Notes: generated by a model not told the origin, from the letters alone. Positions 12,939-63,992 are shown, counted from the first letter of the whole stretch. The stretch is 63,992 nucleotides of DNA, filler included, from Stramenopiles sp. TOSAG23-6 (GCA_900128565.1; 5 parts of 5 records of this genome joined end to end with filler, not necessarily neighbours in it), one strand, 5' to 3'. Made by a program: numbers and translations.

Positions 12939-12992
12939 ATGTATTTTGGAAAAATATTTCAAAAAAAAAACTAAAATTTGTTAGGTACAAAA
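12939..12992 (-). mobile_element. Introner-family intron, 3' part only (ends ..CCAAAATACAT)
   Basis: TTTTGTACCTAAC branch motif and family 3' end; the scaffold ends inside it. Confidence 0.75.
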
Positions 12993-13092
12993 NNNNNNNN
13001 NNNNNNNNNNNNNNNNNNNNNNNNNNNNNNNNNNNNTTAATTAATTAANNNNNNNNNNNNNNNNNNNNNNNNNNNNNNNNNNNNNNNNNNNN
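12993..13092. other. Artificial scaffold linker (N44-TTAATTAATTAA-N44)
   Basis: The same 100-nt six-frame-stop linker recurs at 26074-26173, 39152-39251 and 52195-52294. Confidence 0.97.
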
Positions 13093-13139
<47 letters not shown>

Positions 13140-13143
13140 ATAC

Positions 13144-14198
13144 ATTCCGGAGTCCAATTTTTTTTCTGCATGTAGAGCAATACATTGATCAACAAAAGCA
13201 CGACCGACAACACAGTCCGTCTTCATTTCCGCAAGCTTATGACTGACTGTTTGAAGATCAGATAAAACACCTTTAAATGCTTTGCGATCGTTGGTGTATT
13301 CTCTAGACCATTCAAAGACAGCCTCTGCGGCAGCAACACCCATATCAGCAATGAGTAATCTTTCTTGAGGAAGTTCTGTCATGACACAATAAAATCCTTT
13401 ATTAACTTCTCCTAACAACGCACTGGAAGGGACTCGGAGATCCTCAAAAAACAATTCTGAAGTATCTTGAGCTTTTAAACCCATTTTATCTAGTTTCTTT
13501 CCCTTGGTAAAGCCTTTCATCCCATCTTCAATCAAAAACAACGACACACCATGAGCACCCTTAGAAGGATCCGTTTTAGCACAGACAATCACCAAATCAC
13601 ACATCCAACCATTTGTTATAAATACTTTCGAACCATTAAGAATCCAATCATCACCATCCTGAACGGCTGTAGTCTTAATATTTGCAAAATCAGAACCTGC
13701 AGATGGTTCAGTCATTCCAAGAGCTCCAATCCACTCACCGGACACTAACTTGGGGAGTATCCGCTGCTTTTGTTCTTCAGTACCATAATTAGTGATATAT
13801 GGCGCGACAATATCAGAATGCATTGCAAATCCAGGTCCAGTACAACCACTGTATGATTGTTCCTCCCAAACAATGGCAGGGAACTTACAATCAACACCAA
13901 TACCGCCGTATTTCTCTGGAACCATGGTAGCTAACAATCCATTTTCACCAGCTTTCGTCCAAAGTTCTCGAGGTACTTGTCCATCTTTTTCCCATTCACT
14001 ATGGAAAGGAACAACTTCATTCTCGAAAAAACTACGTGTCATTTCACGAAACATATCGTGATCAGAATCAAAAATATCACGTGTTCCAATGTCGGTGAGT
14101 TTTGAAGCCTGAGCAGGATTTGGACGGCTCATGGAAGAAAAAGAAGACCGAAAAGTGCGCGATGCACCTTGATGTAGCAATTTAACATTACGAAGCAT
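13144..14198 (-). CDS. ACADL: Long-chain acyl-CoA dehydrogenase, mitochondrial (3'-truncated at an intron and the scaffold end)
   Basis: GALGMTEPSAGSD, WILNGSKVFITNG, KMGLKAQDTSELFF and ELPQERL motifs; N-terminal presequence. Confidence 0.9.
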
Positions 14199-14508
14199 TT
14201 TAATGTATAACGTTTGATCAGTTTTGACAGTTGTAGTTTAGGAAGTATATGCGACAGATAGTAATGCAAACTTTTAAAATAAAGCTGTTTGATAAGTTTT
14301 ATTATTACTGTAATAATAATATTGTCGTCGTTATATAAAAGTATCAAATGTTGGAACACATTTGACCCTTTGTTTTTTAGAAGTTACCCGGTAACTAACA
14401 AAACTCCAAAACTGTCGGATTTTGAGATGTCAAAGTAGTACTTGCTTTCTCTACTATTGTGTCATACTTTTTGTTAATATATATTCTTATTTACAAAATC
14501 TTATAAAA

Positions 14509-14561
14509 TGGGGTGTAGCTCACTTGGTAGAGCGCTCGCTTTGCATGCGAGAGGCAGGGGG
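14509..14561 (+). tRNA. Partial tRNA-Ala(UGC) running into a gap; probably a scaffolding duplicate
   Basis: Identical to the 5' part of 14826-14898; the mirrored arm has only one copy. Confidence 0.5.
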
Positions 14562-14825
14562 NNNNNNNNNNNNNNNNNNNNNNNNNNNNNNNNNNNNNNN
14601 NNNNNNNNNNNNNNNNNNNNNNNNNNNNNNNNNNNNNNNNNNNNNNNNNNNNNNNNNNNNNNNNNNNNNNNNNNNNNNNNNNNNNNNNNNNNNNNNNNNN
14701 NNNNNNNNNNNNNNNNNNNNNNNNNNNNNNNNNNNNNNNNNNNNNNNNNNNNNNNNNNNNNNNNNNNNNNNNNNNNNNNNNNNNNNNNNNNNNNNNNNNN
14801 NNNNNNNNNNNNNNNNNNNNNNNAA

Positions 14826-14898
14826 TGGGGTGTAGCTCACTTGGTAGAGCGCTCGCTTTGCATGCGAGAGGCAGGGGGATCGATGCCCTCCACCTCCA
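14826..14898 (+). tRNA. tRNA-Ala(UGC)
   Basis: Cloverleaf: D-stem GCTC/GAGC, anticodon stem CTCGC/GCGAG with TGC, T-arm GGGGG-ATCGATG-CCCTC, G3:U70, discriminator A, downstream T-run terminator. Pair 1:72 is a U-C mismatch. Confidence 0.9.
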
Positions 14899-15147
14899 AT
14901 GTTTTTTCTTTTTTTGAAAAAAATTGTTTTTTTTTTTGAAAGGTCGAAAAAAAGCGATCAAATAAAATGTGACCCTAACCCTACAAGAGACCATAAAAAG
15001 TAGAAACAGACACAAGAAAATTCTAAAAAGTGTACCATTACAATGACAATGTATCCATAATATTGCCTGTATACAATAATTGAATAATTTATTACGTGTG
15101 TATTAATCTTTGTTTGCTATAACTTGAGTCAATCTTACTTTTATACA

Positions 15148-17397
15148 ATGACTGTTTCACCTAAAAATACTAATTGGGCGCGTGAGCTCAATGCGTTTGC
15201 CATTGAGCCTGGGAACCGTGTATGCGCAGATTGTGATTTTTATCCTTTAGAGGGGAGTTCGACCTTTGTATGTTTATTACATAATGTTTTTGTGTGTGAA
15301 CATTGTGCTAATGCTCGGTTTGATGTTGTTCCTAATAGTGTTGATACTGCCGCAGCTGATTCTGGTGATACTGCCGCCGCTGTTTCTGCTACACACGAGA
15401 GGAAAAAAGTCCTTAGGTCTCTTTATGCTCGTAACTGGTCACGAAAAGAGGTTGAATCTGTCTTGAAGGGTGGAAATAGCCAACAAAATAACGTCCTTGA
15501 ACACTTTATACCAAAAAAGTTCATGAAGCCTCAACCAGATGCGACGTTTGAGTCTCGGAAGTCGTGGATAAAGTTAAAATATGAACAACATATGTTTGCC
15601 ATGCCCTATGGCAAACAAAGAATGAAAGAAAACTCTGCTTTAGCTGCGCTTGCACGACCTGTCCTTGCAACATCAAATACGTTGCCTATTCGTTTGGTTG
15701 ATTATTTTATTGTATTTGGTCCAAAAGGACGAGCAAAGAGAAAATTACCTAATCCTAACACTGACACGAAATGCAGCACGGATTCCGATGGAAAGGAAAA
15801 CGTAGACAAGACACTGGATGTTCTGGAATCCATTCCATTAGAATCACAGATTGAAAGTCAATATCCACCAAAAAATAAACCTTATCGCGATGACTGTACT
15901 GTTCCTCATTCTATCGTCGAGTTTTGCTTTCCACATAAAAGTTTTAGAACGCGCTCAGAAAGTTGTTTGTTAACCCTAACCCTAATCATGAATTTTAATT
16001 TTTTTTTTTTTTCATAGTAAATTTTGTACCTAACAAATTTAAAAAAAAAAAAAAAAAACACTTTTGAAATCTTTTTCACAATATATGTGAACCTACTCTT
16101 CTTGATTTTATCTTGACCAATACGAGTGGTGTAAAACAATATGGTAGTGCATTGATTATGTATGAACCAATATCAAAACTACAGGCAAGAGAAATTTTTG
16201 CAGAAGAATTAATAGAATGTTCTTTAGGGGATCGATTTGAATTTGGTATTGTAAATGATCACTCAGCAGCCACTCTACATGAAGTGTCTATAAATGATAC
16301 TATCAATGATACTATAAATGATACTATAAATGATAATACAGATGAAAAAAGTAATACAAACAAAAAAAATAATATTACAAATAATAAAAATGAGAAAAAT
16401 ACAAATAATAAAAATAATAAAAATAATGAAAATACACGAAATCAACAAATTCAAGCACAAGTGGCTTTTTCCTTGACTAGAAAAGTTCGTAAGTTTGCTG
16501 CGGATTCTTTTTTTGATAAATTATCAATTTTAGATGAGCTTGAAATACATCCAAAACAGAATCGAATTTTGATTCAAGAAGCCAAAAAAAACTTGGAAAA
16601 GACAAATGAAACAAAATTATTCGAAGACGTTCAAAAAATGCTTACCAAAGAATGTACATTTTCAAAAAAAAAAAAAAAAAAAATTTCATACAAAATTTCA
16701 AACCTAATCTCAAATAAAAAAAAAAATTTAAAAATTTTTTTTTCATTGAAAAAAATGGACAATGTTATGTACCAAAAGCTTTAGTCGTTCTTTCACATTA
16801 TTCGTTTTTTTCAGCATATCATATTTTTTTACAACAATGTATGTTTTTTTTTTTTTTTTTTTTAATTTTTTTTTCATAGGAAATTTTGTACCTAACAAAA
16901 ATTAAAATTTTTTTTTTGAAATATTTTTTCAAAAATACATTATTTCGATTAAGTCTTTCGTGTTCTCCTGTCCCAATTGAGCGATATATAACAAATTTCT
17001 GTAGTGAAATTCCATTACCACCTCGTGGTTTAGTTCAAGTTCGTGTAAATATTGCTGATGAAAGTTTTACATTATCAAGATGTATGTTTTATTTTTTTTT
17101 TTTTACAAAAAAAATCGAATTTATTTTTTTTATAAAAATTTTGTACCTAACAATTTTTTTTTTTTTTTTTAAATATTTTTCCAAAATACATCTGCACTTC
17201 GTAAAGAAGAAAAAGATGAAGACGATGCAGTTGCATCAAAAGCTCGACAAGCGAGAGAAATGGTTTTCAATGCTAGAGCTGTAAAAGAAAAGAAGATTTT
17301 TGATGAAAAAGTAGCGAAAGAAAAAGCTGATAAAAAAGCTGAAGAAGAAGCAGAAGCAAGACGAAAAGAATTTTTTGGGGACAGCTCTGAAGATTAA
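15148..17397 (+). CDS. ArfGAP zinc-finger plus DENN-domain protein, 4 family introns; last exon of doubtful origin
   Basis: GNRVCADC..VCEHCA..GGN..WIKLKYE (ArfGAP); VDYFIVFG, FCFP, FILTNTSGVKQYG, YVPKALVVLSHYSFF and IPLPPRG (uDENN/DENN). Confidence 0.8.
15965..16086 (+). mobile_element. Introner-family intron, GT-AT
   Basis: TT|GTTTGT..TACCTAAC..CACAATATAT|GT joins ESCEPTLLDFILTN in frame. Confidence 0.75.
16839..16940 (+). mobile_element. Introner-family intron, GT-AT
   Basis: AT|GTATGT..AAAATACAT|TA gives FLQQLFRLS. Confidence 0.8.
17082..17191 (+). mobile_element. Introner-family intron, GT-AT
   Basis: AT|GTATGT..CCAAAATACAT|CT; the downstream frame stays open to 17397. Confidence 0.7.
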
Positions 17398-17522
17398 TCT
17401 TCTCATTTTAAAAATATATATATACTTTAAGAAATAATAAATACACGTCAATAAATCACGTTTTTAAATGTATGTTTTTAGTTATTTATCAAACACGTTT
17501 TTAAATGTCTCTTTTTATGTTT

Positions 17523-19245
17523 TTAGTTATTCGTTACATTTTCTTGATCACAAAATTTACGTTTAGATCCAACTCGATTTATATGTTCTTTATTTTTATG
17601 AGAATCTTTGATTTCTTTGGAGTATCCTTGTGAATATGCTGATGAATCTACTTTTACTTTTTCTTCATCACGAATTCCAATCTTCAAAACTTCAAAAATT
17701 GCAGTTCCACATTTCCTCGATGAAGATTTGACTAATTGAGCTACTCGCTTCATATTATGAAATTGTAATATAATTCGATTATTACAAGAATGTGCCCATG
17801 TTTCTCCCAGTGCTGGAACCATGTATTGTCAACAAAAAACAAATACAAAAAATTGGTCAAAAAAAATAGGTAAAAAAAATTCATACAAAGAAAAAAAAAT
17901 CTAAAAAAAAAATCTAAAAAAATTTGTTAGGTACGAAATTTCGTACGAAAAAAAAAATCATACAACAAAAAATTTCATCATGAAAAAATACATTTTCCCT
18001 TCTTTACAGCCTGTTTGAGGATTTACAGCAATTCTTGTAGTCATCTGGTTGACAACCACAACAGATGCAGGTGTACATAGAGCAAGTTGATGTAAGCACT
18101 GAGCCATTCCTGAGAGCATGAATTGTGAAAAAATATTTCTTTTTTTACAAAAAAAAAAAATTGTTAGGTACAAAATTTTCTGTGAAAAAATAAAAAAATT
18201 CGAAATTGTGGAAATGAAAACGTATATTCTCGCTCGTTTAGCCATATTGGAAAAATCTCTCCTAAAATGAAAACTGACACTATCAATAATAATTATTCGA
18301 ATCAGTGGATTTTTTTCTATGAAATTCTCTAAATTTTGTATAATAGCCAATTGTTCTCGAAAATCGTGAGCTCTATAAACATGTATTGTGAAACATTCAA
18401 AAAGAAAAAAAACGTTAGGTACAAAATTTTCTATGAAAAAAATAAATAAATTCGAAATTGGTAAAAAAATGATGAAAAAAACAAACGTGAATATTGGATA
18501 GTATAGACTCTCTTGTAAACTGTTTTGCTTCTTCAAGGTAATCTTTATCATCTATTGTAGAACTACTAGATGATTTTGTACGTTTACGGTTTTTCCGTGT
18601 GGCCATTTTTTTAACATGACGAACTAAAGCATCAGCAATTTGAGCGACACGACTGACCATAAAACTGCCTTCGGTATCAATGTAAATGGCATGGCCACCA
18701 ACACCACCAAAGCATTTTGGTATTTGTACATCAACTGCTAATTGGATCATTAGTTGTGTTTTACCTACACCTGCGACACCAACGACTTCGGTTACTTCAC
18801 GCAAAGGAATACCATTTGGGTCAAAAAGCGTGTCCAGTGAACGACAAAAAGAAATTACATTTGGTCCATTGTTTTCGCTCAATAAATCTAGCGCTGTTTT
18901 TGTACGAAGTGGATTTTTACTCAGGGGCTGTGCATGATTGGTGTTTTGTCTTTGTATGGAATCATTTGATTGGCCATTTTGTGAATTTGTGGACTGTAAA
19001 GTTGTGTTACCACTCACTGTTTCAACTGAAGTACCACCACTCGTTCGTACAAGTTTAATTATTTCAAGAGCATCAGAGTTTGACACATCTAAATCTCGAG
19101 ATAGTTCAAGTGGGCTTATGTCCACGAGTTGAGTTGCAGTCTCAAAACCAGCTTCTCTAAGCTTGTTATGAAATTTAGGAGGAAAAGCAAGACAATATAG
19201 TGGTAAAGAAGCCGTAGCTGAGGTCACCGATACTACGCTTTCCAT
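17523..19245 (-). CDS. RAD51C: RAD51 paralog C; exons 19245-18487, 18380-18226, 18117-17992, 17820-17523
   Basis: Walker A GVAGVGKTQ, LAVDVQIP..GG..AIYIDTEGSF, IIIDSVSFHFR, NQMTT and PALGETWAH motifs; three family introns. Confidence 0.92.
17821..17991 (-). mobile_element. Introner-family intron, GT-AT
   Basis: AT|GTATTT..CAATACAT|G restores KMVPALGETW. Confidence 0.8.
18118..18225 (-). mobile_element. Introner-family intron, AT-AT
   Basis: AT|ATACGT..CAATTCAT|G restores RARMLSGMAQ. Confidence 0.75.
18381..18486 (-). mobile_element. Introner-family intron, GT-AT
   Basis: CAC|GTTTGT..CAATACAT|GTT restores LSNIHVYRAHDF; the next two AGs are out of frame. Confidence 0.82.
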
Positions 19246-19757
19246 TTGAAATCTACAACACTTCCTGCTGGAAATAAGTACGAATTAAACGCTGACCAAC
19301 GGATTAAACAAGCTAAAATAGCACTAAGTTAGAGATAGTTACAACAAAAACAGGCTTATCAATTCAACATATTTTCATCATTCTTGATTATTACCATAGG
19401 AAATCCATTACACACGCTGATTTCAGATTGATAATTTGGTCCAAGTAATGAATTTTAATGATAGCATAGCAATAATTAATTCATTGATTTGATTGATTGA
19501 AAAAATCTAGATCTTGTTTTTTCATTTGAATTTTATGTTACCCGGTCCCCTACGTCATTTTTATCTATTTCGAAATAATATTATTACTTTATATGATAGA
19601 TAATATTGGATCATATTTAGAATGTAAAGCGAAACTCTTAATGTATAAAACAGAACAAATGAACAACAATCATTTTTTTGTTTGAAAAAATAATTACGTA
19701 CAAAATCTGGTACAAACAAAAATTAGGAAAAAAATCAAGAGGATTATTTAATATTTA

Positions 19758-21158
19758 TTATAGAAAAGTTGGATTATCTAAATCTAATCTAGATAATTTC
19801 GATACTGCAAGCATTTGCTCTGGTAATTCGTATTCATCACAACCTTGAAGAACAAAACCAATATTACAAATCAAATCTTTTACATGACCTCGAAAAGTCT
19901 GCATTAATTTAACTGCCATTGCTTTGAATGAGGAAACATCAACGTCAATTTCAATGTATTATGGAAAATATTTCAAAAAAAAAAACTAAAATTTGTTAGG
20001 TACAACATTCCGTACGAAAAATAAATTCAAAATTGAAAAAAAATAAAACATATATGTAACTATCTCCTGTATACTGCCGATCACTAGGATGCATTTGCAA
20101 TCCACGGTGATAAAACCTCGCTGTTTTTGCTATTATAAAAGGCGTTGCATTTGCAGATTCACAAATCATTCCAAGTTTTAGTTGTTTCATATTTGTGGAG
20201 TCAACAATGCATTTCACGCGATGATCACCGTTATCCCATTTATTGACAACTTGTTTTTTATCTGAAGATAAAAAGTTAAATCTTGATTTTTCTATTATTA
20301 CTGGTGTAGCATCGCGAGGTCTTTTGCCCATAGACATGAACCAGTTTTGTGCCAACCGTATTCCAGCAACAGCGGCAGTGTCTGATATGTCGTTTGTGTT
20401 TGTTGTAGAATTTCTTCTTGCAGCAGATATCGCTTCAGAAAGTGAAGTTATATGTGAAAAATCACGAACTGCTCGTGCAGCTGCCTTTTCACCTTTTTTA
20501 GTAAAAACACTGAGACATTTGAGAAATTTTGTGGATACTTGATGGCCAATTAAGACATGTTCAGTTGGGCCATCTTTTACGGAACTAGATTTGAGTACTC
20601 CTCTATCCCACTTATATGGAAGTTGAGCACAAGTAAATAAAAATATAGGAATGGAAAATCTTCGACATGATCTGCGTACAGCTTCGTCAACAGTCGGTAG
20701 GGAAAATATTTTTTTTGAGGCAGCATATGAAACAAGATTGTCAACTCTTTTAGGAGCTCTAAATATCTCTACGCCAATGACATCATATAAAGAAAACGTA
20801 GAGGGTACTTTTTTAGGATTCTTTGTTGCAGATTTACGTCGAAAACCTTTTTTTGACTTGGAACTAAAATAATCAGTACTACGAATATTAAAATCAGAGC
20901 CTGAAGCAACAGAAAAATTTGTTTTCTTTTCACCATGCAAAGTGTAACCAAATATTCGGACACCACTTTTAGAATGTCTCTTCTGTGGAGTTTTCGCACC
21001 ATGACTGCTAGAGACACCAGGATTTGAGTGACTTTTACTGGGACGACAAGGTATAACTGGTGGTACTTGGGAAGCTTGCAATGGTGTCAGGTTTTGTGTT
21101 GCAGGTTCCTGACGTCTAAATGTTATTTTTAGCGGTCTTGATGCGGCTATTATCAGCT
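19758..21158 (-). CDS. EDR2 C-terminal (DUF1336) domain protein; 5' end lost at the inversion junction
   Basis: FNIRSTDYF, YIEIDVDVSSF and IGFVLQGCDEYELPEQML motifs after removing 19954-20053. Confidence 0.75.
19954..20053 (-). mobile_element. Introner-family intron, AT-AT
   Basis: AT|ATATGT..TACCTAAC..TAATACAT|T restores YIEIDVDV. Confidence 0.78.
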
Positions 21159-21768
21159 GTAAAGAAGGGAAAATGTATTTTTTCATGATGAAATTTTTTG
21201 TTGTATGATTTTTTTTTTCGTACGAAATTTCGTACCTAACAAATTTTTTTAGATTTTTTTTTTAGATTTTTTTTTCTTTGTATGAATTTTTTTTACCTAT
21301 TTTTTTTGACCAATTTTTTGTATTTGTTTTTTGTTGACAATACATGGTTCCAGCACTGGGAGAAACATGGGCACATTCTTGTAATAATCGAATTATATTA
21401 CAATTTCATAATATGAAGCGAGTAGCTCAATTAGTCAAATCTTCATCGAGGAAATGTGGAACTGCAATTTTTGAAGTTTTGAAGATTGGAATTCGTGATG
21501 AAGAAAAAGTAAAAGTAGATTCATCAGCATATTCACAAGGATACTCCAAAGAAATCAAAGATTCTCATAAAAATAAAGAACATATAAATCGAGTTGGATC
21601 TAAACGTAAATTTTGTGATCAAGAAAATGTAACGAATAACTAAAAACATAAAAAGAGACATTTAAAAACGTGTTTGATAAATAACTAAAAACATACATTT
21701 AAAAACGTGATTTATTGACGTGTATTTATTATTTCTTAAAGTATATATATATTTTTAAAATGAGAAGA

Positions 21769-24335
21769 TTAATCTTCAGAGCTGTCCCCAAAAAATTCTT
21801 TTCGTCTTGCTTCTGCTTCTTCTTCAGCTTTTTTATCAGCTTTTTCTTTCGCTACTTTTTCATCAAAAATCTTCTTTTCTTTTACAGCTCTAGCATTGAA
21901 AACCATTTCTCTCGCTTGTCGAGCTTTTGATGCAACTGCATCGTCTTCATCTTTTTCTTCTTTACGAAGTGCAGATGTATTTTGGAAAAATATTTAAAAA
22001 AAAAAAAAAAAATTGTTAGGTACAAAATTTTTATAAAAAAAATAAATTCGATTTTTTTTGTAAAAAAAAAAAAATAAAACATACATCTTGATAATGTAAA
22101 ACTTTCATCAGCAATATTTACACGAACTTGAACTAAACCACGAGGTGGTAATGGAATTTCACTACAGAAATTTGTTATATATCGCTCAATTGGGACAGGA
22201 GAACACGAAAGACTTAATCGAAATAATGTATTTTTGAAAAAATATTTCAAAAAAAAAATTTTAATTTTTGTTAGGTACAAAATTTCCTATGAAAAAAAAA
22301 TTAAAAAAAAAAAAAAAAAAAACATACATTGTTGTAAAAAAATATGATATGCTGAAAAAAACGAATAATGTGAAAGAACGACTAAAGCTTTTGGTACATA
22401 ACATTGTCCATTTTTTTCAATGATTGATGTATTTTGGAATAATATTTCAAAAAAAATCTAAAAAAATTTGTTAGGTACNNNNNNNNNNNNNNNNNNNNNN
22501 NNNNNNNNNNNNNNNNNNNNNNNNNNNNNNNNNNNNNNNNNNNNNNNNNNNNNNNNNNNNNNNNNNNNNNNNNNNNNNNNNNNNNNNNNNNNNNNNNNNN
22601 NNNNNNNNNNNNNNNNNNNNNNNNNNNNNNNNNNNNNNNNNNNNNNNNNNNNNNNNNNNNNNNNNNNNNNNNNNNNNNNNNNNNNNNNNNNNNNNNNNNN
22701 NNNNNNNNNNNNNNNNNNNNNNNNNNNNNNNNNNNNNNNNAAAAAAAATTTTTAAATTTTTTTTTTTATTTGAGATTAGGTTTGAAATTTTGTATGAAAT
22801 TTTTTTTTTTTTTTTTTTTGAAAATGTACATTCTTTGGTAAGCATTTTTTGAACGTCTTCGAATAATTTTGTTTCATTTGTCTTTTCCAAGTTTTTTTTG
22901 GCTTCTTGAATCAAAATTCGATTCTGTTTTGGATGTATTTCAAGCTCATCTAAAATTGATAATTTATCAAAAAAAGAATCCGCAGCAAACTTACGAACTT
23001 TTCTAGTCAAGGAAAAAGCCACTTGTGCTTGAATTTGTTGATTTCGTGTATTTTCATTATTTTTATTATTTTTATTATTTGTATTTTTCTCATTTTTATT
23101 ATTTGTAATATTATTTTTTTTGTTTGTATTACTTTTTTCATCTGTATTATCATTTATAGTATCATTTATAGTATCATTGATAGTATCATTTATAGACACT
23201 TCATGTAGAGTGGCTGCTGAGTGATCATTTACAATACCAAATTCAAATCGATCCCCTAAAGAACATTCTATTAATTCTTCTGCAAAAATTTCTCTTGCCT
23301 GTAGTTTTGATATTGGTTCATACATAATCAATGCACTACCATATTGTTTTACACCACTCGTATTGGTCAAGATAAAATCAAGAAGAGTAGGTTCACATAT
23401 ATTGTGAAAAAGATTTCAAAAGTGTTTTTTTTTTTTTTTTTTAAATTTGTTAGGTACAAAATTTACTATGAAAAAAAAAAAAAATTAAAATTCATGATTA
23501 GGGTTAGGGTTAACAAACAACTTTCTGAGCGCGTTCTAAAACTTTTATGTGGAAAGCAAAACTCGACGATAGAATGAGGAACAGTACAGTCATCGCGATA
23601 AGGTTTATTTTTTGGTGGATATTGACTTTCAATCTGTGATTCTAATGGAATGGATTCCAGAACATCCAGTGTCTTGTCTACGTTTTCCTTTCCATCGGAA
23701 TCCGTGCTGCATTTCGTGTCAGTGTTAGGATTAGGTAATTTTCTCTTTGCTCGTCCTTTTGGACCAAATACAATAAAATAATCAACCAAACGAATAGGCA
23801 ACGTATTTGATGTTGCAAGGACAGGTCGTGCAAGCGCAGCTAAAGCAGAGTTTTCTTTCATTCTTTGTTTGCCATAGGGCATGGCAAACATATGTTGTTC
23901 ATATTTTAACTTTATCCACGACTTCCGAGACTCAAACGTCGCATCTGGTTGAGGCTTCATGAACTTTTTTGGTATAAAGTGTTCAAGGACGTTATTTTGT
24001 TGGCTATTTCCACCCTTCAAGACAGATTCAACCTCTTTTCGTGACCAGTTACGAGCATAAAGAGACCTAAGGACTTTTTTCCTCTCGTGTGTAGCAGAAA
24101 CAGCGGCGGCAGTATCACCAGAATCAGCTGCGGCAGTATCAACACTATTAGGAACAACATCAAACCGAGCATTAGCACAATGTTCACACACAAAAACATT
24201 ATGTAATAAACATACAAAGGTCGAACTCCCCTCTAAAGGATAAAAATCACAATCTGCGCATACACGGTTCCCAGGCTCAATGGCAAACGCATTGAGCTCA
24301 CGCGCCCAATTAGTATTTTTAGGTGAAACAGTCAT
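21769..24335 (-). CDS. Duplicate copy of the ArfGAP-DENN gene
   Basis: Identical ORFs; this copy shows the ..CCAAAATACAT|CA acceptor of intron 2, which is collapsed in the left copy. Confidence 0.7.
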
Positions 24336-52307: not shown

Positions 52308-52351
<44 letters not shown>

Positions 52352-52360
52352 GAAAAAATT

Positions 52361-52394
<34 letters not shown>

Positions 52395-52445
52395 TTCTAA
52401 AAAGTTGTTGAAAAAAAAAAAAAAATTGTACAAAACAAAACATAC

Positions 52446-53611
52446 GTATCCTCCGGTGGCACCGCCTAATGCCTTACCTAGAGTAGATGTAATCACATCA
52501 ATTCTTCCCTGAACACCACAATGTTCATGTATTTTGGAAAATTATTTCAAAAAAAAAATTTCCGTAAAAAAAAAATTGTTAGGTACAAAATTTCGTACAA
52601 AAACAAAAAAAAAAAAAAATACAACATACATCTGTTCCACGGCCTGTTTTACCAAAGAAGCCTGAAGCGTGACACTCATCAATCATAACTTGTGCTTGAT
52701 ATGTATTGTGAAATATATTGTGTTGTAAAAAATAGTTGGGTACAAAATTTTCAAAAAAAAAATTAAATTGTGAAATTGTGAAATTGTGAAATGGTACATT
52801 TATCTGCTAAATCACAAATGTCACTTAGTGGCGCTACATCCCCATCCATTGAAAAAACGCCATCAGTAGCTATTAATTTTAATCGAGCTCCAGCTGCATC
52901 AGCTTCTTTTAATTTGTGTTCCAAGTCATCCATACACATATGTTCAAAACGATATCGTTTCGCTTTACAAAGACGAATTCCATCAATACTACATTTTGGA
53001 AAAATATTTCAAAAAAAAAAAATTCCGTAAAAAAAATCGTTAGGTACAAAATTTCGTACGAAAAAAAAAATCAATTTTTTGTTAAAAAAAAAAAATAAAA
53101 CATACATGGAGGCGTGATTTAAAGAGTCACTAATCACTGCATCATCTGCCGTTAGAATGGTTTCAAAAAGACCAGCATTAGCATCAAAACAACTCGGGAA
53201 AAGAATTGTATCTTCGGTTCCGTGAAACTTAGAAATGGCAGTCTCTAAATCTTTATGGATATCCTGAGTACCACAAATAAATCGCACCGATGCACAACCG
53301 AGTCCATGTGTCTCTAAAGTATTTTTAGCTGCTTGTACAAGTTCAGGGTGATCCGCCAACCCTAAGTAATTGTTTGCACAGAAATTTAATACTGGCTGCT
53401 TCGAACCTTGTACGGAAATTTCAGAATTTTGGGACGAGGTGATCACACGTTCATTTTTGAACGTTCCAGCCTCTTTTATTTCTTCGAGTTCTGCTTGCAG
53501 TATTTCCCGCATTGGAGTAAACGCAGCAGCAGTTTGATGTGCTCGAGTTGTAATAAAAGCATTTGAGTGAAGCTTCATAAATATTGATCTACATTTACTT
53601 GGGGATAACAT
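52446..53611 (-). CDS. GCAT: 2-amino-3-ketobutyrate CoA ligase, mitochondrial (3'-truncated); exons 53611-53106, 52988-52798, 52700-52630, 52526-52446
   Basis: [43 protein letters not shown] and TLGKALGGA motifs. Confidence 0.95.
52527..52629 (-). mobile_element. Introner-family intron, GT-AT
   Basis: GAT|GTATGT..CCAAAATACAT|GAA restores [15 protein letters not shown]. Confidence 0.87.
52701..52797 (-). mobile_element. Introner-family intron, GT-AT
   Basis: AT|GTACCA..CACAATACAT|AT restores [13 protein letters not shown]. Confidence 0.85.
52989..53105 (-). mobile_element. Introner-family intron, GT-AG variant
   Basis: AT|GTATGT..CCAAAATGTAG|T restores NHASIIDG. Confidence 0.9.
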
Positions 53612-55835: not shown

Positions 55836-58595
55836 TTATTGTTTTACTCTTGTTGCTTTTCTCTTGACTTTTTCAACAATATAACGAAAAAATGGAGGTC
55901 CAATGATTTGATTTATAACAACGACTGATATCATCGTTGTTGCAAATGCACCTCCCCAGCCACTGTATTCTAAATGTACTTTTTTAGCAAGTCCTAATGC
56001 TACTCCAGCTTGTGTGATGTATGCCATCCAAGATGATTTGTTCTCATCATCAGGCTCTCCGGACGCATATCCACCCAAATAAGCTCCAACCATAATTCCT
56101 AATATACGACCAACAACTATACTATATTTTGGAAAAATATTTCAAAAAAAAAAAAATCTAAAAAAACTTGTTAGGTACAAAATTTTTTTACAAAAAAAAA
56201 AAAAAAAAAAATTAAAACATACATAGATGCAATGTATAAATTCTCAGTCATGACTTTTAAATTAAGTGCTGCGCCGCATAATGTAAAAAAACTCACGTGT
56301 ACATATGGAGCAATCCGATCCTCCTTGTATTGTGAAAAATATTTTTTTTTGTAATTTCGAATTTATTTTTTTTCTTAGGTACAAAATTTCCTACGAAAAT
56401 TAAAAAAAAAAAATTTAAAAAAAAAACCTACATGGTGAGAAAGTGTTTGTTTCCATTGCTAAAGTTGACACACACAAAACCTGCAACAGTGCAAATAATA
56501 AGTGGTTGAAGGTATGGTTGAACTCTATGACCCACAGCAAAGGCAAGAAATCCACTAAGAAGTAAACATGTATTTTGGAAAAATATTTGAAAAAAAAAAA
56601 TTTCAATTTGTTAGGTACAAAATTTTTATAAAAAACCAAAAAAAAAAAAAAAAATCGAATTTGAAAAAAAACCAAAAAATAAAACATACATGTGTCTAAA
56701 ATTCTTGATATGATCTTTTGAAAACTTTGAGGGATATTGAGTGACCGAGTAGAGCTATCAAATCTGTCTTCATTTGAAAACTTATTTTGTTTAGGGTTAG
56801 GGTCAATAAGCCTTGTTGTAGTAGATGATTCATTAATGGAACTCTCAACATCTCGTGTTTCCAATCTTCCTTTATGTATTTTGGAAAAATATTTCAAAAT
56901 TAAATCCGTTAGGTACAAAATTTCGTATGAAAAATAAATTCGATTTTTTTTTTTTTTTTTTTTTTGGTAAAGAAAAAAAAATAAAAATAAAACATACATG
57001 TTTGGTTCTATAAGGTTCAATAATTTTATATACTTCAGATTTTTCAGATTTTTCAGATTTTTCAGTTTTTTCAGATTTTTTAGATTTTTTAGAATTTTTA
57101 GGGTTGAGCAACGGGTGATGAAATTTTGAATGTTTTGTGTTGAATAGAAATTCGTATAATTTATGACAACAAGAACATGGTGACTCAGGTGATAATGATA
57201 CTATCGCGGGTAAAAAAAACAAACCCCAAACAATTCCAAGTAATGCCGACATGCCTAACTGTGCAAAAAATACAGCAGTTACATAAATAGAACGAACTTC
57301 ATTAGCAAGCAATGCATTAGCAAATAACGAAGCTGCAGCAAAAATTCCAATGACAACTAAATCCATGACAACAGTGACTCCAAGAACCAATCTAGAAAAA
57401 GATAAATTTTCCGTGCCAGTTTCTCTAACTATTGCAATGGCAGATGCAGGAGATCTAGCTACAATAAGAGCTCCAGCCATCAAAGCCACTGCAAGAACTT
57501 GGTTCTGGCTCATTCCTTTCATAAACACAATTTGATTTGAAAGACAAACGACAAGAAATGTACCTACTAAATATTCAAACAGTACCAGTCCTAAAGTAAC
57601 ATACATAATAGCTTTCATGCGACCTTTCATTCGGCTTAATATCAGTTTACTTCCTGATGCATAGGATATAAATGCAAGGGCAGTTTCATCAATGAAACGT
57701 AGCGATCGAATGTCTGCCTCTGGTATTAGTTGTAGAGCTTGTGGACCGGTCAAGATACCCATTAGAAGAAAACCTGTTATTCTCGGTAAACCCATGTATT
57801 TTGGAAAAATATTTAAAAAAAAAAGTTTAAAATTTGTTTTCTATGAAAATTTCGTATGAAAACCAAAAAAAACAAAAAAAACAAAAAAAAAATAAAATAT
57901 ACATGCTAGGAAATGCCGCCCCAACACTTTGGCTCGCAACACAGACCATGGCAAAACGAACTGCAACTGCAAGTGATGGAATATAATCGCGTAATGATGG
58001 CGTATGTGTATTTCCACGAAGAGTATTTTTATCAGTGAATTTTGAGGCAGTACTTTTGTTATCCGCCGCATCAAGTACAGAGCAATCAATTGGCATTTTG
58101 CCAGCTGCCCAGTCCCCTTGCCCAGCTTGTAATGTAAAACTAAAAAAATAAGTAAAACCAGAAGGATCAAGTTTTACATTTCTTGCAGAGTTGAAACTAT
58201 CTGTAGCATTAAACCCATCAAGTAAACACAAACCTGGTCGCAATCCTACTTCCTCAGTACGTAGCCCAACAGTAATATTAGTCCCCATCATTGCAGGTGT
58301 ATATTTTGTGAAAAAAAAAAAAAAAAAAAAATTGAAATTCGTTAGGTATATAATTTCGTACGAAAACCAAAAAAAACAAAAAAAAAAAAATTTTACCAAA
58401 AAAAAAATTCATGGTGAAAATATACATGATCGGATAGTAAAGTGACTGCTTTAAGTTCTGGAGAGTTAGCATCAATACTTAACTCTGGATCATAAATATT
58501 CATAGGTCCTAAAGTCGATACATTTTTTGCTTCATCCACTAAAGAACATAAAAAAGGAAGTTGTCCAGAAAGCTGATTCACATATATTGTGAAAA

Positions 58596-58636
<41 letters not shown>

Positions 58637-58669
58637 AAATTTTTAAAAAAAAATTTTTTTTTTTTTAAA

Positions 58670-58701
<32 letters not shown>

Positions 58702-58962
58702 GTAAAAAAAAAAAAATATCGTTAGGTACAAAATTTCGTATGAAAAAAAAACCAAAAAAAAAAAAAAAATTCTAATCATTACTACAAAAAACGTACATCT
58801 CCTTCCTCGACTAAATAGTTTACAACATATAATCCACGGCCAAGGATAAGCACATCAGACACTCGTTTACCTTGCTTTACTTTACCTTTTGGGAAATTTA
58901 TGAAACAATCACCTAAAGTTAGATTTGAATCAAGGGAACTCGCTTCAACTTCTATAGAAACA
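55836..58962 (-). CDS. Cation/H+ exchanger (CPA-type) with N-terminal extracellular repeats; 7 family introns; 5' end uncertain
   Basis: GLPRITGF, ALAFISYASGSKL, ARSPASAIAIVRE, VTVVMD, FFTLCGAALNL, TQAGVALGLA and INQIIGPP motifs. Confidence 0.85.
56122..56222 (-). mobile_element. Introner-family intron, GT-AG variant
   Basis: AT|GTATGT..CCAAAATATAG|T. Confidence 0.85.
56325..56431 (-). mobile_element. Introner-family intron, GT-AA variant
   Basis: AT|GTAGGT..CACAATACAA|G; both adjacent AGs are out of frame with this donor. Confidence 0.65.
56568..56689 (-). mobile_element. Introner-family intron, GT-AT
   Basis: AT|GTATGT..CCAAAATACAT|GT opens the LLLSGF..QPLIICTVAGF exon. Confidence 0.82.
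56874..56997 (-). mobile_element. Introner-family intron, GT-AT
   Basis: CAT|GTATGT..CCAAAATACAT|AAA; the nearby AGs are out of frame. Confidence 0.8.
57794..57902 (-). mobile_element. Introner-family intron, GT-AT
   Basis: AT|GTATAT..CCAAAATACAT|G restores FPSMGLPRITG. Confidence 0.82.
58301..58425 (-). mobile_element. Introner-family intron, GT-AT
   Basis: CAT|GTATAT..CACAAAATAT|ACA, in frame. Confidence 0.65.
58582..58796 (-). mobile_element. Introner-family intron, GT-AT
   Basis: GAT|GTACGT..CACAATATAT|GTG, in frame. Confidence 0.72.
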
Positions 58963-59078
58963 ATGTATTTTGGAAAAATATTTCAAAAAAAAAAAAAAAA
59001 AACTGTTAGGTACAAAATTTCGTACNAAAAAAAAAAAAATTTTAATTTTCGAAAAAAAAAAAAAAAAATTAAACATAC
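58963..59078 (-). mobile_element. Introner-family intron, GT-AT, probably chimeric (single N at 59026)
   Basis: Family ends, but it links a kinase exon to exchanger exons. Confidence 0.65.
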
Positions 59079-59823
59079 ATATGTAATAGTTGTAAAGAAT
59101 GGCCAAAATCACCCATTAATTTTAATATAACAATTTCACGAGCCAAATGCAACGCTTCTGATTCATTTCTATCAATAATGTATTGTGTAAGATAGTACTG
59201 TGGTTTTAGGGTTAAACATCGTTTTAAAAAAAAAAACATGAAAAAATCATGAAAAAAAAAAAAAAATTGTTAGGTACAGAATTCCGTACAAAAAAAAAAA
59301 TCATGAAAAAAAAAAAAAAGACGTACACTTTTAATGCCACTTTTTTCCCTGTTGATTTCTCTATGCCATCATAAACTACTGCATATCGTCCAGTTCCAAG
59401 TTTTTCGCCAATGATGAAGCGATCTGTAAGTTTGGGATTCTGCATGGCTTTCTGACGTGTCGTTTTTGAGTTTTTTGAGTTTCGTGTACGTTTTGAGGTT
59501 GTTGTTTTTGAGGATTTCGAGGAATTCTCTTTTTTTTTATCTTTTTCATCACTTTGTGTTGTATTTTTGTCTTCTGTTGTTGTCCGAGGGGAAAAACTAG
59601 ATGCTAGAATACTTCCAGAAAGAAATCGATGTATCATAAATCGTGTACCATTTTGAATATCGGGTATATGAATCTCATCAGTATATAGAGCAAGAACACC
59701 AACTGAAAAAAAAGACATTGTAAGACAAGAGTTGCGTCGAAATTTGAAAAAATGATTATTTCGTAGAAAGACACCAAAGGAATTGTTGAAGACACGTGAC
59801 CTTAAAAATGACCACACAGTCAT
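59079..59823 (-). CDS. N-terminal fragment of a Ser/Thr protein kinase (subdomains I-IV)
   Basis: LGTGRYAVVY, VALKVIDR and LAREIVILK motifs; no catalytic loop follows. Confidence 0.75.
59178..59326 (-). mobile_element. Introner-family intron, GT-AT
   Basis: GT|GTACGT..CACAATACAT|T restores VALKVIDRNE. Confidence 0.75.
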
Positions 59824-60479
59824 TGTACTAGTTAGGCTTTCACGTACTAAATATAAAACATCCTAATATTTAACATAAAGTACTCTACTGCAATAATGAA
59901 ATGGGCATCTTATATTTTATTTCTTTTTTCTTGCTTCGGTGTTCTGGTACCAAATATTATGAAGAAGAAGAAGAAGAAGAAGGCGCGCGGATTTTTGGGA
60001 GGAGGAGGAGGAGGACACAATAATTTGTACATTTCCGATTTGCTCAACAATAAAAAAATAAAGTCCAGTTTTCGTGTTTTCCTTCAATCCTGCGCTGTTC
60101 ATTTTTCGATCATTCGCCACCACCACTCGAAAAAAAATCATATCAACGAGTTACGAGTGTGCAAAATAAAATTCTTCTTTTAATTCAGGTAACAAAATAT
60201 AACAATACTACGAATATCATCAAAATTAACAATTGCTGCTGGTACATATTTCCATTTCCTTGTGTTTGATCTTACATATTGATACTCCATTGAAGTGAAA
60301 GTAACGGTTCGTGTAGAGAGTTTGAAAGTAATAGTTCAATCACATCAAAGTAGGCTGTTTCCGAATTAACCTTCTGTGTTTGTCTTTTTTGTTGTTTTTC
60401 TTTTTGTGGCATATTTTCTCACACAACATTCATTCATTGAACGTTCATTACTATCAAAGTAGATTGACGTCTCTCGAAA

Positions 60480-62243
60480 ATGGAAGATATCTGTCATATA
60501 AAGACGTTAAAAATTGACAAACATGAAATAGAAAATTCGGGAAATCCACCAAAAAAAAAATCGGGAAATCCACCAAAAAAAAATCCAGAAGCTTTGGAGA
60601 GGACACAAAGTGCTCTGAAACATTCCATCGCTCGCACACGATCGAATAGTCCAACAGAAAGCATATTTAAAACAACCCCTGAAAATCAACATACTCTCTT
60701 ATGGGATACTAAATATAATTTCGATGCAACACAGTTCACAAATGATGATCTAGTCATTGTGTTGCAATGCATTTGGAAAAAATTGAACATTTTTTTTCTA
60801 TCACAAATTTCTTGTAAAACTTGGACTGAATTTTTCAATACTGTTTTACAAGAGATGTCCTGCAATGGTAATGAATATGTATGTTTTATTTTATTTTTTT
60901 ACAAAAAATTAAAGTTTTTTTTTTTTTTTTTTTTTTTGGTTTTCGTACGAAATTTTGTACCTAACAAATTAATTTTTTTTTTTTTGAAATATTTTTCCAA
61001 AATACATCATACATTTCGACATGTCGTCGATGTCACACATTTTATGTATTCTTTACTGACTGAAACAAAATTGATTTTCCATTTAAAAACGCATGAAATA
61101 GTTGCAGTCATGACAGCTACATTATTACATGATTTGGGTCATTTGGGGTATTCAAATTGGTGGTTAAAAGCAACACATCATCAATGGGCTGTTAAAAACA
61201 AGAACAGCCCAAATGAAAACGAACATGTCCGTTGTCATCATGAATTTATTAATTTATTTATTTTTTTTTGGTTTCATACGAAATTTCGTACCTAACGATT
61301 TTTTTTTTTTTGTAAAATTCGTGTTTTTTTCACAATACATGTTCGACGCGCAAAACTGTTAATAGAAAAATTTTCAATATTTCGTGCATTTTCACAAGTA
61401 CAACAAAAAAAAATGTATCGTTTACTTACTGAAATGATATTTGGTACTGATATGAGTAATGTATGTTTTATTTTTTTTCAAAAATTTTTTTTTTTAATAG
61501 TAAATTTTGTACCTAACATTTTTTTTAGATTTTTTTTAAATTTTTTTTTTTTGAAAATTTGATTTTTTTTTTTTTTTTTTTTCATAGTAAATTTCATACC
61601 TAAAAAAATTTTTTAAAAAAAATTTTATAAAATATTTGTCCAAAATAAATCATGGTAAAATTTTTTTTAAAAGTAAATTTTTTCCCTAAAATTTTTTTTT
61701 GATTTTTTTTAAATTTTTTTTTTTTTAAAATTTTATTTTTTTTTTTTTTTTTTTTTCATAGTAAATTTCATACCTAACAAAATTTTTTAAAAAAAATTTT
61801 ATAAAATATTTGTCCAAAATACATCATGGTAAAATGTATAAATCATTTGGAAATATGCTATCACAAATGTCAGAATCCCATGCAGGGGGTCATATACAAC
61901 ACGAAATGCATGAAAAACACGAAATACATGAAAAACACGAAATACATGAAGAAAATAGAAAAAAACGAAGACAAAGTGTGTTTGAAAAAGTCATGGAAAC
62001 ACGAAAAAAACATGTTCTTTGTATATATGTATGTTTTTTTTTTTTTCAATTTTTTATCTACATTTTTTTTTTGGTTTTCATACGAAATTTTCATAGAAAA
62101 TAAATTTAACAAAAAAAAAAAATTCACAATAATTCACAATATAGGGTGATATTCAAGATGATAGTAAACAATGTTATAAAAGCCGTTGGTTATCAATGGC
62201 ACTCAAAGTGGCTGATATTTCTAATTTAGGACGGCCTCTGCAT
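60480..62243 (+). CDS. Class I 3',5'-cyclic nucleotide phosphodiesterase; exons 60480-60878, 61008-61226, 61341-61460, 61825-62028, 62145-62243
   Basis: YHTFRHVVDV, LLHDLGH.G.SN, ENEH, TDMSNH and LKVADISN motifs, several spanning junctions; start uncertain. Confidence 0.85.
60879..61007 (+). mobile_element. Introner-family intron, GT-AT
   Basis: TAT|GTATGT..CCAAAATACAT|CAT restores the catalytic NEYHTFRH; no AG for more than 90 nt downstream. Confidence 0.88.
61227..61340 (+). mobile_element. Introner-family intron, GT-AT
   Basis: CAT|GTCCGT..CACAATACAT|GTT. Confidence 0.8.
61461..61824 (+). mobile_element. Introner-family intron, GT-AT, with an internal duplication
   Basis: AAT|GTATGT..CCAAAATACAT|CAT restores TDMSNH; a degraded second copy of the 3' end lies near 61580-61660. 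Confidence 0.75.
62029..62144 (+). mobile_element. Introner-family intron, GT-AG variant
   Basis: TAT|GTATGT..CACAATATAG|GGT. Confidence 0.78.
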
Positions 62244-62347
62244 GTAAGTTTTTTTTTTTTCATTTTTTTTTTTAATTTTTTTTTTCATTTTTTTTTTAAA
62301 TTTAAAAATTTTTTTTTTTTTTTCAATTTTTTTTTTTTTTAAATTTA

Positions 62348-62433
<86 letters not shown>

Positions 62434-62517
62434 CAATTTTTTTATTTTTTTTTTTTTTTCATTTTTTTTTTTTCATCAATTTTTTAAAATATTTTAAAAT
62501 ATTTCTGTATACAATAG

Positions 62518-63883
62518 GTATTAGAATCTCATCAAAGTATAATGAATGATATAAAAGAATTTGAAACCAAACTACAAAACAATGAAAATGATGCAAAACA
62601 CAAATGTGAATTACACGAAATATTGAAAAAAAAAAAGGACAATTTAGATAAAAAAACATCTGAAATTCAAATATTATTATCAAAACGTAATAAATATTTA
62701 AAATTTGATCAACAACATAAATTGAGAAATTTAGAAATAAGTAAAATTTCTGATTTAATTATTCATGAAGAAAAATCGATTCAACAACAACACGAAAAAC
62801 ACGAAAAACACGAAAAAAAAAACACAGACTCTTCAAATCACGAAATCAATGAAAAAAATACAGACGATTCAACACAAAAATATTTTGCTGATTTCGTGTC
62901 ACAATGTGAATTAAATTTTCAAAATAGAGAATATTTACAGTCCAAATTAAATCAAATGAATGACGTCATTGATTGGTTACATACATTTCGATGTGTGTTT
63001 TTATCATTTTTTAATAACCCTAACCCTAAACATGAAAAAAAGGAAAATAAAATACAAAAAAATGAAAAAAATGAAAAACACGAAATACAAAAAAATGAAC
63101 AAAATGAAACAATTTCAAATGAGAATTTCGTTCATGATTTAATAAATAATTTTCAACAAAGTGAAACATTTCTTGATAGAATAACAAAGTTAGTATTAAA
63201 AAGAGTACATGCACAAACATGTTTATTAGCAATGTATACAAAATTTTTAAATTGTAACACTAATGATGATGATGCTACTTTGTTATTACCGGGTACTGAT
63301 AAAAATATGAATGATATTGTCAATATTATGAAATCTATACTACAATTTGAAAATGAAATCACTCGTATCGAAAAATTAGTGATTTTCTATGCAAAACTGT
63401 TTGGATCAAATATTTTAGCTACAAGAAATTTTGAAAAAAAATCTGAAGAAAATTCTGAAAAAAATTTTGAAGAAAATTTTGAAAAAAATTTTGAAAAAAA
63501 TTTTGAAAAAAATTCTGAAAAAAATTTTGAAAAAAATTCTGAAAACTTTTTTACTCCAATTTTTCCTGAAACATTTGTGATTGATGACGTCACTGTATCA
63601 GATGTAAACATGTATGTTCATGATAGAATACAACAATATACGACTGAATTTAATATAGTTTCAGTTACAACACGAATTATCTTACAATATTTATTGAAAG
63701 AAAAAAGAAGTCAAAATCGACATAAATTACACGAAATATTTGTACAAAATCATGTAGTACAAACCTGTCGAGAGGATGATTGTGAAACAATTCCATCATC
63801 ACCAAAATCAATATCATCATTTATTTCGTGTGCAACAAAAATGAGTTCAAAAACGCTTTCAACTCTAGACACAAATACTCCAT
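62518..63883 (+). CDS. Low-complexity coiled-coil exon of an unknown gene, in frame with PDE via intron 62244-62517
   Basis: Long ORF with ENFE/KNSE repeats; followed by AT|GTAGGT..CCTAAC at 63884. Confidence 0.55.
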
Positions 63884-63960
63884 GTAGGTGGTTCATTTAT
63901 CATTTCAAAAAAAAATATATTTTTTTTTTTTTTTTTTTTTTTAGTAAATTTTTTTCCTAA

Positions 63961-63992
<32 letters not shown>

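Follow-up and report, generated by a model that had tools for sequence, protein, structure and literature searches.

Introns that do not end in AG, and that belong to a single repeated element, appear to be the rule in a stretch of 63,992 bases (the window) from Stramenopiles sp. TOSAG23-6 (GCA_900128565.1), in which five scaffolds of ~13 kb are joined by linkers of the form N44-TTAATTAATTAA-N44. The window holds 35 unique loci of a family of many similar introns in unrelated genes, at least 13 of them different, and every copy lies within coding sequence and in the sense orientation of its host gene, with none intergenic and none antisense. The reading that we favour, with a probability of about 0.6 and on the strength of reading frames and protein homology, is that these are one introner family of short U2-type spliceosomal introns, which would have multiplied through the genes of an uncultured marine stramenopile of MAST-3 type and would be removed as GU-AU introns.

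The 35 loci comprise 29 complete copies and six cut by scaffold ends or gaps; in arriving at this number, five mirror copies in a palindromic scaffold (see below) were removed and three profile matches of one composite intron were merged. Several searches converge on the family: a 25-mer core with up to three mismatches gave 23 matches against none in 100 shuffles, a 21-mer pattern for the 3' end gave 18 against a shuffle mean of 0.23, and an nhmmer profile built from 25 copies gave 38, including an otherwise missed copy at 57794-57902. All five scaffolds hold at least one copy (scaffold 1 only the partial one at 12939-12992), and 13 host genes are known by a Pfam match or by homologues on the strand of the element. 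A two-mismatch match to the 3' motif at 42153-42173, antisense within an uninterrupted open reading frame (ORF) for a 1,679-residue ankyrin protein, is probably due to chance. A scan for introns outside the family, which looked for an open frame leading into a donor-like hexamer and then a branch motif, returned only family members or plain coding sequence, and the proposition that most introns of this organism are of the family type is drawn from 64 kb.

Complete copies are 91-364 nt long (median 110). At the 5' end 26 of them begin with GT and three with AT, and all four partial copies that retain this end begin with GT; at the 3' end 25 finish in AT, three in AG and one in AA, so that a terminal AG is found in 3/29. 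The donor is a GTATGT-like hexamer (+1 G 26/A 3, +2 T 29, +3 A 25, +5 G 24 and +6 T 27, n = 29), consistent with a U2-type 5' splice site. A branch site, GTACCTAAC with at most one mismatch or a degenerate form of it, occurs in every copy and is followed by runs of T; in 28 complete copies the last branch-like motif is 28-140 nt away from the 3' end. No part of the element is better conserved than the 3' block (-6 A 29, -5 T 28, -4 A 27, -3 C 22/T 7, -2 A 29 and -1 T 25/G 3/A 1, n = 29), which exists in two subfamilies ending in ...GAAATATTTTTCCAAAATACAT and ...TTTTTCACAATACAT. The three AG copies all end in TAG, which one T-to-G change in the ...TATAT variant would produce.

An earlier note on this DNA had reported ~37 sites, always in the sense orientation of the host gene, 31 of them complete and ending in AT (26), AG (four) or AA (one). 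That these are intron-like insertions of one family, present in all five scaffolds, in sense in every copy and mostly ending in AT and not AG (25/29), is borne out here; the numbers come down to 35 and 29, and the distribution of ends, in close agreement otherwise, loses one AG copy (25/3/1). The same note had overlooked the exonic AT that precedes 23 of the 29 copies, the introner nature of the family, its palindromic termini and the 2-nt direct repeat.

These features outline a model in which each copy would carry its own signals, namely a yeast-like donor GUAUGU, a branch site GUACCUAAC with a small palindrome before it, tracts rich in T and, at the 3' end, a conserved block that finishes in AAUACAU. 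Each copy would sit after an exonic AU, with termini (AU/GUAU...AUACAU/, where a slash marks a proposed boundary) that are palindromic and include a 2-nt direct repeat, and taking out 'the element plus one AU' would give back the original reading frame exactly. Cuts before G+1 and after the final U would then produce GU-AU introns. The A at -2 would be required and the last base relaxed (mostly U, with G and A tolerated), while the acceptor would be placed without an AG by its distance from the branch site, by the A at -2 and possibly by a terminal helix, which is seen in the folds of five out of five copies (see below). Two origins can be envisaged, either a small DNA transposon whose 2-bp target duplication would supply the last two bases of the intron, or insertion that favours positions following an AT, as might come about through reverse splicing; the 2-nt AT repeat could be either a target-site duplication (TSD) or a target preference. 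Either selection or a mechanism tied to transcripts can account for the sense-only and genic-only distribution. The family itself, its orientation and its place in coding sequence are observed, and spliceosomal removal at the RNA level, the bonds cut and the mode of spread are what we infer.

A broader proposition, to which we give slightly better than even odds, is that a free-living marine stramenopile has come to use GU-AU as its main intron class by way of a mobile intron that has a perfect donor and branch site yet ends in AU and that would have colonized its genes, its otherwise ordinary U2-type spliceosome finishing the second step without a terminal G. For such a spliceosome the signals would be no more than the A at -2 and the geometry of the branch site, perhaps together with a helix, staggered by 2 nt, between exonic AU plus intron start and intron end.

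Junctions in the host genes

Reading frames provide a test that covers many copies at once. When the ends that are homologous across the family are used without adjustment, 17 of 22 join the longest flanking frames, for a chance expectation of 1/3 (P = 3e-5). Among the five failures, 26442 and 58301 fit with the acceptor moved by 2 nt to a neighbouring AT, 56568-56689 fits a second frame that is also open, and 56325 fits with an AA end alone; the fifth (48174-48264) is taken up below. Once two acceptors have been moved by -2 and one by -1, all of this post hoc, both flanks are open in 28 of the 29 complete copies.

Protein homology places individual junctions more precisely. In KBL, a protein assembled from exons 53611-53106, 52988-52798, 52700-52630 and 52526-52446 was aligned with 25 homologues picked from 120 matches, and its three junctions (NHAS-I-IDG, LADK-Y-QAQ and GRGTD/EHCGV) are ungapped against all 25. 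In RAD51C, exon 2 corresponds to residues 134-183 of 8gj8_A and exon 3 to residues 185-218, which leaves one residue for the codon split by the junction; exon 4 begins at residue 224, past a variable loop. In the PDE gene, exon 2 aligns end to end with residues 66-139 of PDE9A, its first residue being position 2 of the PDEase_I profile, and it ends at about position 75 of that profile, exon 3 starting at about 78. In the AlkB-type gene the placement is limited to the upstream exon, which ends ...PRRSL against ALKBH8. Apart from RAD51C exon 2 and, weakly (E = 0.0014), PDE exon 3, the short exons found nothing in PDB and Pfam, and a search for PDE homologues at 'near' lengths gave no match.

Nearby AGs would be poor substitutes for these ends. 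Between 8 and 45 nt past the branch site, 13 of the 24 AT-ending copies examined have no in-frame AG, and in several copies internal AGs lie 13-31 nt past the branch site, out of frame. In KBL, use of the nearby AGs (+6 and +12 in intron 2, +18 in intron 3) would remove conserved residues. The statement of the earlier note that removal at the observed ends restores conserved motifs is sustained as regards KBL, PDE and RAD51C; for AlkB the check extends to the upstream side only. The junctions that protein homology implies for the mRNA are, to that extent, shown at these sites.

Cut sites and rival readings

For 23 of the 29 complete copies the preceding exon ends in AT, whereas the background frequency of AT is 0.096 (P ~1e-18). 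Because exon and intron then both end in AT, the two boundaries can be slid 2 nt upstream to give the same mRNA.

Several results weigh against a GU-AU introner. Removal, the junctions and the cut sites are all deduced from homologous proteins and from frames, three acceptors (26442, 58301 and 56325) were set post hoc to fit the frame, and for 48174-48264 no GT-AT reading fits. Boundaries of the AT...AC type give identical mRNA for 16 of the 25 AT-ending copies; for seven of the other nine, some canonical in-frame alternative lies within +/-15 nt and would change a few residues, and homology rules out a canonical alternative for RAD51C alone. Compensatory changes were not found in the terminal helix (5.14 pairs per copy versus 5.16 with shuffled partners), and whole-intron folding is weak, with z between -0.3 and -3.4 and shuffles barely beaten in four of five copies. 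Finally, the 22-base core has no exact match in the collections of metagenomes, genomes and viral contigs that were searched, which makes the element one of a single assembly.

The alternative that survives best, itself unlikely, is U2-dependent AT-AC splicing, in which the introns and mRNAs would be the same and the cuts would fall two bases upstream at both ends (AUGUAUGU...AUAC), G-mutated copies having switched to GU-AG. It yields the same mRNA for the 16 copies just mentioned, for which GT-AT and AT-AC cannot be separated by mRNA or by reverse transcription PCR, and A+1/C-1 pairing can replace G+1/G-1. AT-AC termini are established and U2-dependent introns of this type exist (PMC1557818). 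However, with the mRNA proposed here AT-AC is impossible for nine of the 25 AT-ending copies, including the homology-checked RAD51C copy at 18118-18225 (AT/ATACGT...TTCAT/), which would become AT-TC and which has no frame-keeping canonical pair within +/-15 nt. With boundaries shifted by -2, eight loci would begin with TT, AC, AG, TA or GT, whereas in the GT register the donor GTATGT is conserved, the A at -2 is invariant and variation is confined to the last base. The AG copy at 52989-53105, whose boundary is unique and fixed by homology, is cut at /GTATGT, and its surroundings (CAT/GTATGTTTTATTTT) are those of the AT-ending copies. Nor are the introns U12-type: U12-type introns have AT-AC or GT-AG termini, the former being a possible reading of 16 of the 25 AT-ending copies, an extended 5' box, RTATCCTT, and a branch site ~10-26 nt from the 3' end, whereas no copy has the ATCC donor box (+3 to +8 read ATGTTT) and in 28 complete copies 34-140 nt separate the main branch core from the 3' end, outside the U12 distance rule (for 59178-59326 the distance is counted from the main core, a downstream CTAAA motif lying at 28 nt). 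GT-AT is the more economical register, since the donor is fixed at /GT by the AG copies and an AT-AC reading is barred for nine AT-ending copies; given removal as proposed, we put it ahead of AT-AC at roughly four to one.

An improbable reading dispenses with the spliceosome, the helix between exonic AU plus GUAU and the 3' AUACAU aligning the junctions with a 2-nt stagger for excision by an endonuclease and an RNA ligase, a route suspected for the nonconventional introns of euglenids. The termini ATGTAT/ATACAT are indeed palindromic, a TTTT/AAAA stretch can also pair past a one-base bulge, and the terminal helix appears in the minimum free energy and centroid folds of five out of five copies; euglenid introns (PMC12621601) and the introners of Amoebophrya (PMC7789003) are likewise described with a short direct repeat and an inverted repeat at their ends. 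Against this, a cut guided by structure needs no GTATGT donor, branch motifs, T tracts or strict sense orientation, the helix is only 6+3 bp, lacks covariation and is broken in several copies (3/6 pairs in 18118-18225), and the CAG...CTG signature of Euglena is absent here (PMC12501133).

A shade less probable still is that the AT-ending copies are not correctly removed at all, being transposons in dead or dying genes, introns spliced at cryptic AGs, or errors of assembly or amplification in an assembly of the single-cell type. The assembly is fragmentary and includes a palindromic, chimera-like scaffold, one copy is out of frame, and some in-frame AG is found near 11 of 24 AT-ending copies. 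Yet exons are open and conserved on both sides of 28 of the 29 copies, the housekeeping genes KBL, RAD51C and PDE are collinear with their homologues at the AT ends only, the nearby AGs costing conserved residues, and it is the 3' block that is best conserved, which is unexpected from random error. Elimination at the DNA level, as with the internal eliminated sequences of ciliates, the assembly then being a germline-type genome, would suit short, AT-rich elements with inverted terminal repeats that interrupt coding sequence, but it is very improbable in view of 35/35 loci in sense orientation, which DNA excision does not need, flanks of AT and not TA, spliceosomal signals within the element and no need for stop-codon reassignment.

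Likeness to known intron systems

The earlier note knew of no described case like this one, a claim that has to be withdrawn, genome-scale non-GT/AG splicing having been described in Fritillaria, Amoebophrya, hemistasiids and Euglena. Introners, which are found in Micromonas, Aureococcus, dinoflagellates, fungi and many aquatic protists, likewise consist of many near-identical short introns in unrelated genes, and those of Micromonas are sense-only with a genic distribution similar to that of the family here. Some introner families have terminal inverted repeats and/or TSDs, the element supplying one or both splice sites and the target duplication the rest (PMC9860276). In a 2025 survey of introners the only 3' ends treated as familiar are AG and AC, and non-canonical families without transcript support were discarded (PMC12130899). 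The introner families described in the literature consulted are of the form GT/GC/GA...AG, whereas here 26 of 29 copies lack the AG, the direct repeat is one of 2 nt (AT) and no autonomous partner was seen.

In Fritillaria, a tunicate and thus an animal, the non-canonical introns originate from miniature inverted-repeat transposable elements. Fewer than 10% of the introns of Fritillaria borealis are GT/AG, the U2-type spliceosome is conserved, and divergent U2AF paralogues recognize the 3' ends (PMC13326754). Both ends are diverse there and the 5' GT has been lost, whereas in the protist studied here donor and branch site are canonical and the last base alone departs. Non-canonical introns exceed 60% of the total in Amoebophrya, whose introners have inverted repeats of 8-20 nt and direct repeats of 3-5 nt over the boundaries, their cut site being ambiguous because the direct repeat overlaps the exon/intron boundaries (PMC7789003). 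The two have in common an inverted repeat joining the intron ends and a short direct repeat lying at the boundaries; however, splice motifs are varied in Amoebophrya and U1 was not found, whereas the family here is homogeneous, with GTATGT, a 2-nt direct repeat and a 6+3 bp inverted repeat.

Non-canonical introns are even more prevalent in hemistasiid diplonemids, where they make up ~97% of the total (PMC12621601), and 72% of Euglena introns are nonconventional, with a CAG...CTG code (PMC12501133). As in the present family, non-GT-AG ends can pair in these organisms and juxtapose the junctions (PMC12621601; PMC12501133), but euglenid and hemistasiid introns are described as lacking U1 complementarity and a conserved branch motif, both of which the element has. 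TG acceptors have been reported in 36 human genes (PMC2374985); these and U2-dependent AT-AC introns (PMC1557818) are rare among thousands of AG introns, whereas non-AG ends are the rule in the window. What separates the family from Fritillaria, Amoebophrya, hemistasiids and Euglena alike is that their ends are heterogeneous and the donor is also lost, while here donor and branch site are of the textbook kind and the last base alone is changed, uniformly. No GT-AT intron class and no introner in MAST lineages was found in the main texts of the literature searched, and a term search of three MAST genome papers (PMC5778133, PMC8163842 and PMC12614181) showed no discussion of introns.

Few signals in eukaryotic gene expression are as well conserved as the 3' AG, and the known large-scale exceptions to it have messy, heterogeneous ends that are hard to dissect. 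If the reading of a GU-AU introner is true, this protist would offer a natural, homogeneous and genome-wide relaxation of the AG rule, in which the target duplication of a transposon (AT) dictates the acceptor dinucleotide. It would then be a clean natural experiment on how the site is chosen in the second catalytic step, and an example of how a genome can have a new acceptor dinucleotide forced on it by an introner. Gene finders that presuppose AG will produce wrong models for such genomes, and gene counts and completeness for the group may therefore be underestimated; the acyl-CoA dehydrogenase model P0121, which has a false deletion of 31 residues, is already a case in point.

Host organism, scaffolds and individual copies

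The assembly is AT-rich, with a GC content of 24-40% in the window, and its genes can be read without reassignment of any stop codon. The ORF for acyl-CoA dehydrogenase at 13146-14237 (-) is the same as protein P0121 (GSMAST32.ASY1.ANO1.2173.1) except for a 31-residue gap, and P0121 stops where this scaffold stops. Behind it, the nearest named relatives are Triparma and Parmales (79%), then Aureococcus and an 'INCI' entry (73%), all of them stramenopiles; a protein atlas returned just broad eukaryotic clusters of this enzyme. The host is taken to be a MAST-3-type marine stramenopile because this ORF matches a GSMAST32-labelled model and its relatives are stramenopile. A marine diplonemid, an idea suggested by PMC12621601, was considered as host and dropped, the ORF being identical to the GSMAST32 model and its relatives being stramenopile. 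The 31 residues that P0121 lacks are continuous in the DNA and conserved in five out of five other homologues, and it appears that a gene finder cut a false canonical intron out of the exon.

Scaffold 2 (13093-26073) is a near-perfect palindrome, whose arms (13093-18010 and 21156-26073) are 99-100% complementary and flank a centre of 3,145 nt of unique sequence. Five sites are therefore mirror copies and the arms are not independent. Amplification chimeras show such a pattern in single-cell assemblies, and the arms also duplicate a tRNA-Ala (14826-14898 and 24585-24657); these two mirror copies were the only hits of Rfam in the window at gathering thresholds, with no small nuclear RNA among them. 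The arms differ at 16687-16742 versus 22427-22478, where an intron's 3' end is retained beside an N gap in the right arm and the left has a shorter, T/A-rich join; this is probably an intron collapsed in assembly. Six scaffold ends (12993, 13093, 26073, 26174, 52194 and 52295) lie within the T-rich part of a copy, and the repeat and its homopolymers seem to break the assembly.

The genes of the window are eukaryotic and encode Myb, Hobbit/FMP27, acyl-CoA dehydrogenase, ankyrin, HMG box, ArfGap, Rad51, PLD-like, 2OG oxygenase, VTT, EF-hand, Na/H exchanger and PDEase_I domains or proteins. Six loci are partial. The 3' part of one (...ATACAT/), in the Hobbit-family gene at 12939-12992 (-), is cut by the end of scaffold 1, and the 5' part of another (AT/GTATGT plus poly-T), in the acyl-CoA dehydrogenase gene at 13093-13143 (-; mirror 26023-26073), lies at a scaffold end. 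Scaffold 1 thus ends, and scaffold 2 begins, with the 3' and 5' halves of such introns, respectively, which may be coincidence. A second 3' part (...ATACAT/) at 22427-22478 (-) is cut by the N gap, and 5' parts run into the start of scaffold 3 (AT/GTACAT..., 26174-26290, -), are cut by the end of scaffold 4 in the EF-hand gene (AC/GTATGT..., 52127-52194, +), or, as KBL intron 4, run into the start of scaffold 5 (AC/GTATGT..., 52295-52445, -).

The complete copies can be followed along the window. Scaffold 2 has TT/GTTTGT...ATATAT/ in the ArfGap gene at 15965-16086 (+; frames open over 292 and 231 codons; mirror 23397-23518), followed by two copies of the form AT/GTATGT...ATACAT/ at 16839-16940 (+; mirror 22226-22327) and 17082-17191 (+; mirror 21975-22084). 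RAD51C holds three, AT/GTATTT...ATACAT/ at 17821-17991 (-; mirror 21175-21345), AT/ATACGT...ATTCAT/ at 18118-18225 (-), with A at +1 and no possible canonical reading, and AC/GTTTGT...ATACAT/ at 18381-18486 (-); a gene with an EDR2_C domain has AT/ATATGT...ATACAT/ at 19954-20053 (-). Further on come AG/ATATGT...ATATAT/ in the PLD-like gene at 26442-26536 (-; one of the acceptors set post hoc), AT/GTATGT...ATACAT/ in the AlkB-type 2OG oxygenase gene at 31343-31437 (+), TA/GTATGT...ATACAT/, with a degenerate branch core, in the VTT-domain gene at 32147-32255 (-), AG/GTATGT...ATACAT/ at 46510-46632 (-), AT/GTTTCA...ATACAT/ at 48174-48264 (-), where the frames fail to join at these ends, and AT/GTACGT...ATACAT/ in the ankyrin gene at 48427-48517 (-).

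On scaffold 5, KBL has AT/GTATGT...ATACAT/ as intron 3 (52527-52629, -; junction GRGTD/EHCGV), AT/GTACCA...ATACAT/ as intron 2 (52701-52797, -; LADK-Y-QAQ) and the AG copy AT/GTATGT...ATGTAG/, with its unique boundary, as intron 1 (52989-53105, -; NHAS-I-IDG). The region 55839-59862 (-) has nine copies in ~4 kb on one strand, and its exons run from a kinase-like VALKVIDR region into a Na/H-exchanger domain, as one long fused gene or two adjacent ones. On the minus strand in this part of the scaffold are the AG copy AT/GTATGT...ATATAG/ (56122-56222), AT/GTAGGT...ATACAA/ (56325-56431), with an AA end and an AG one base on that breaks the frame, AT/GTATGT...ATACAT/ at 56568-56689, at 56874-56997 in the Na/H-exchanger gene and at 58963-59078, AT/GTATAT...ATACAT/ (57794-57902, from the profile search only), AT/GTATAT...AAATAT/ (58301-58425, acceptor set post hoc), AT/GTACGT...ATATAT/ (58582-58796) and GT/GTACGT...ATACAT/ (59178-59326).

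The PDE gene has AT/GTATGT...ATACAT/ at 60879-61007 (+) and 61461-61824 (+) and AT/GTCCGT...ATACAT/ at 61227-61340 (+). The first of these is 129 nt long without an in-frame stop, so that a stop-to-stop ORF (60468-61295) reads through it, and annotation based on ORFs would give PDE 43 junk residues. The intron at 61461-61824 contains a tandem duplication, a 174-nt unit present twice at 61488-61835 (94% match), which spans the intron's 3' part and the initial bases of the next exon, the end of the first copy being degenerate (AAATAAAT). The last complete copy, at 62029-62144 (+), is an AG copy, AT/GTATGT...ATATAG/, with a degenerate core. Short telomere-like CCCTAA repeats (TTAACCCTAACCCTAA) occur at 15965-15990, at the 5' end of an intron, and at 56700-56760, in nearby coding sequence.

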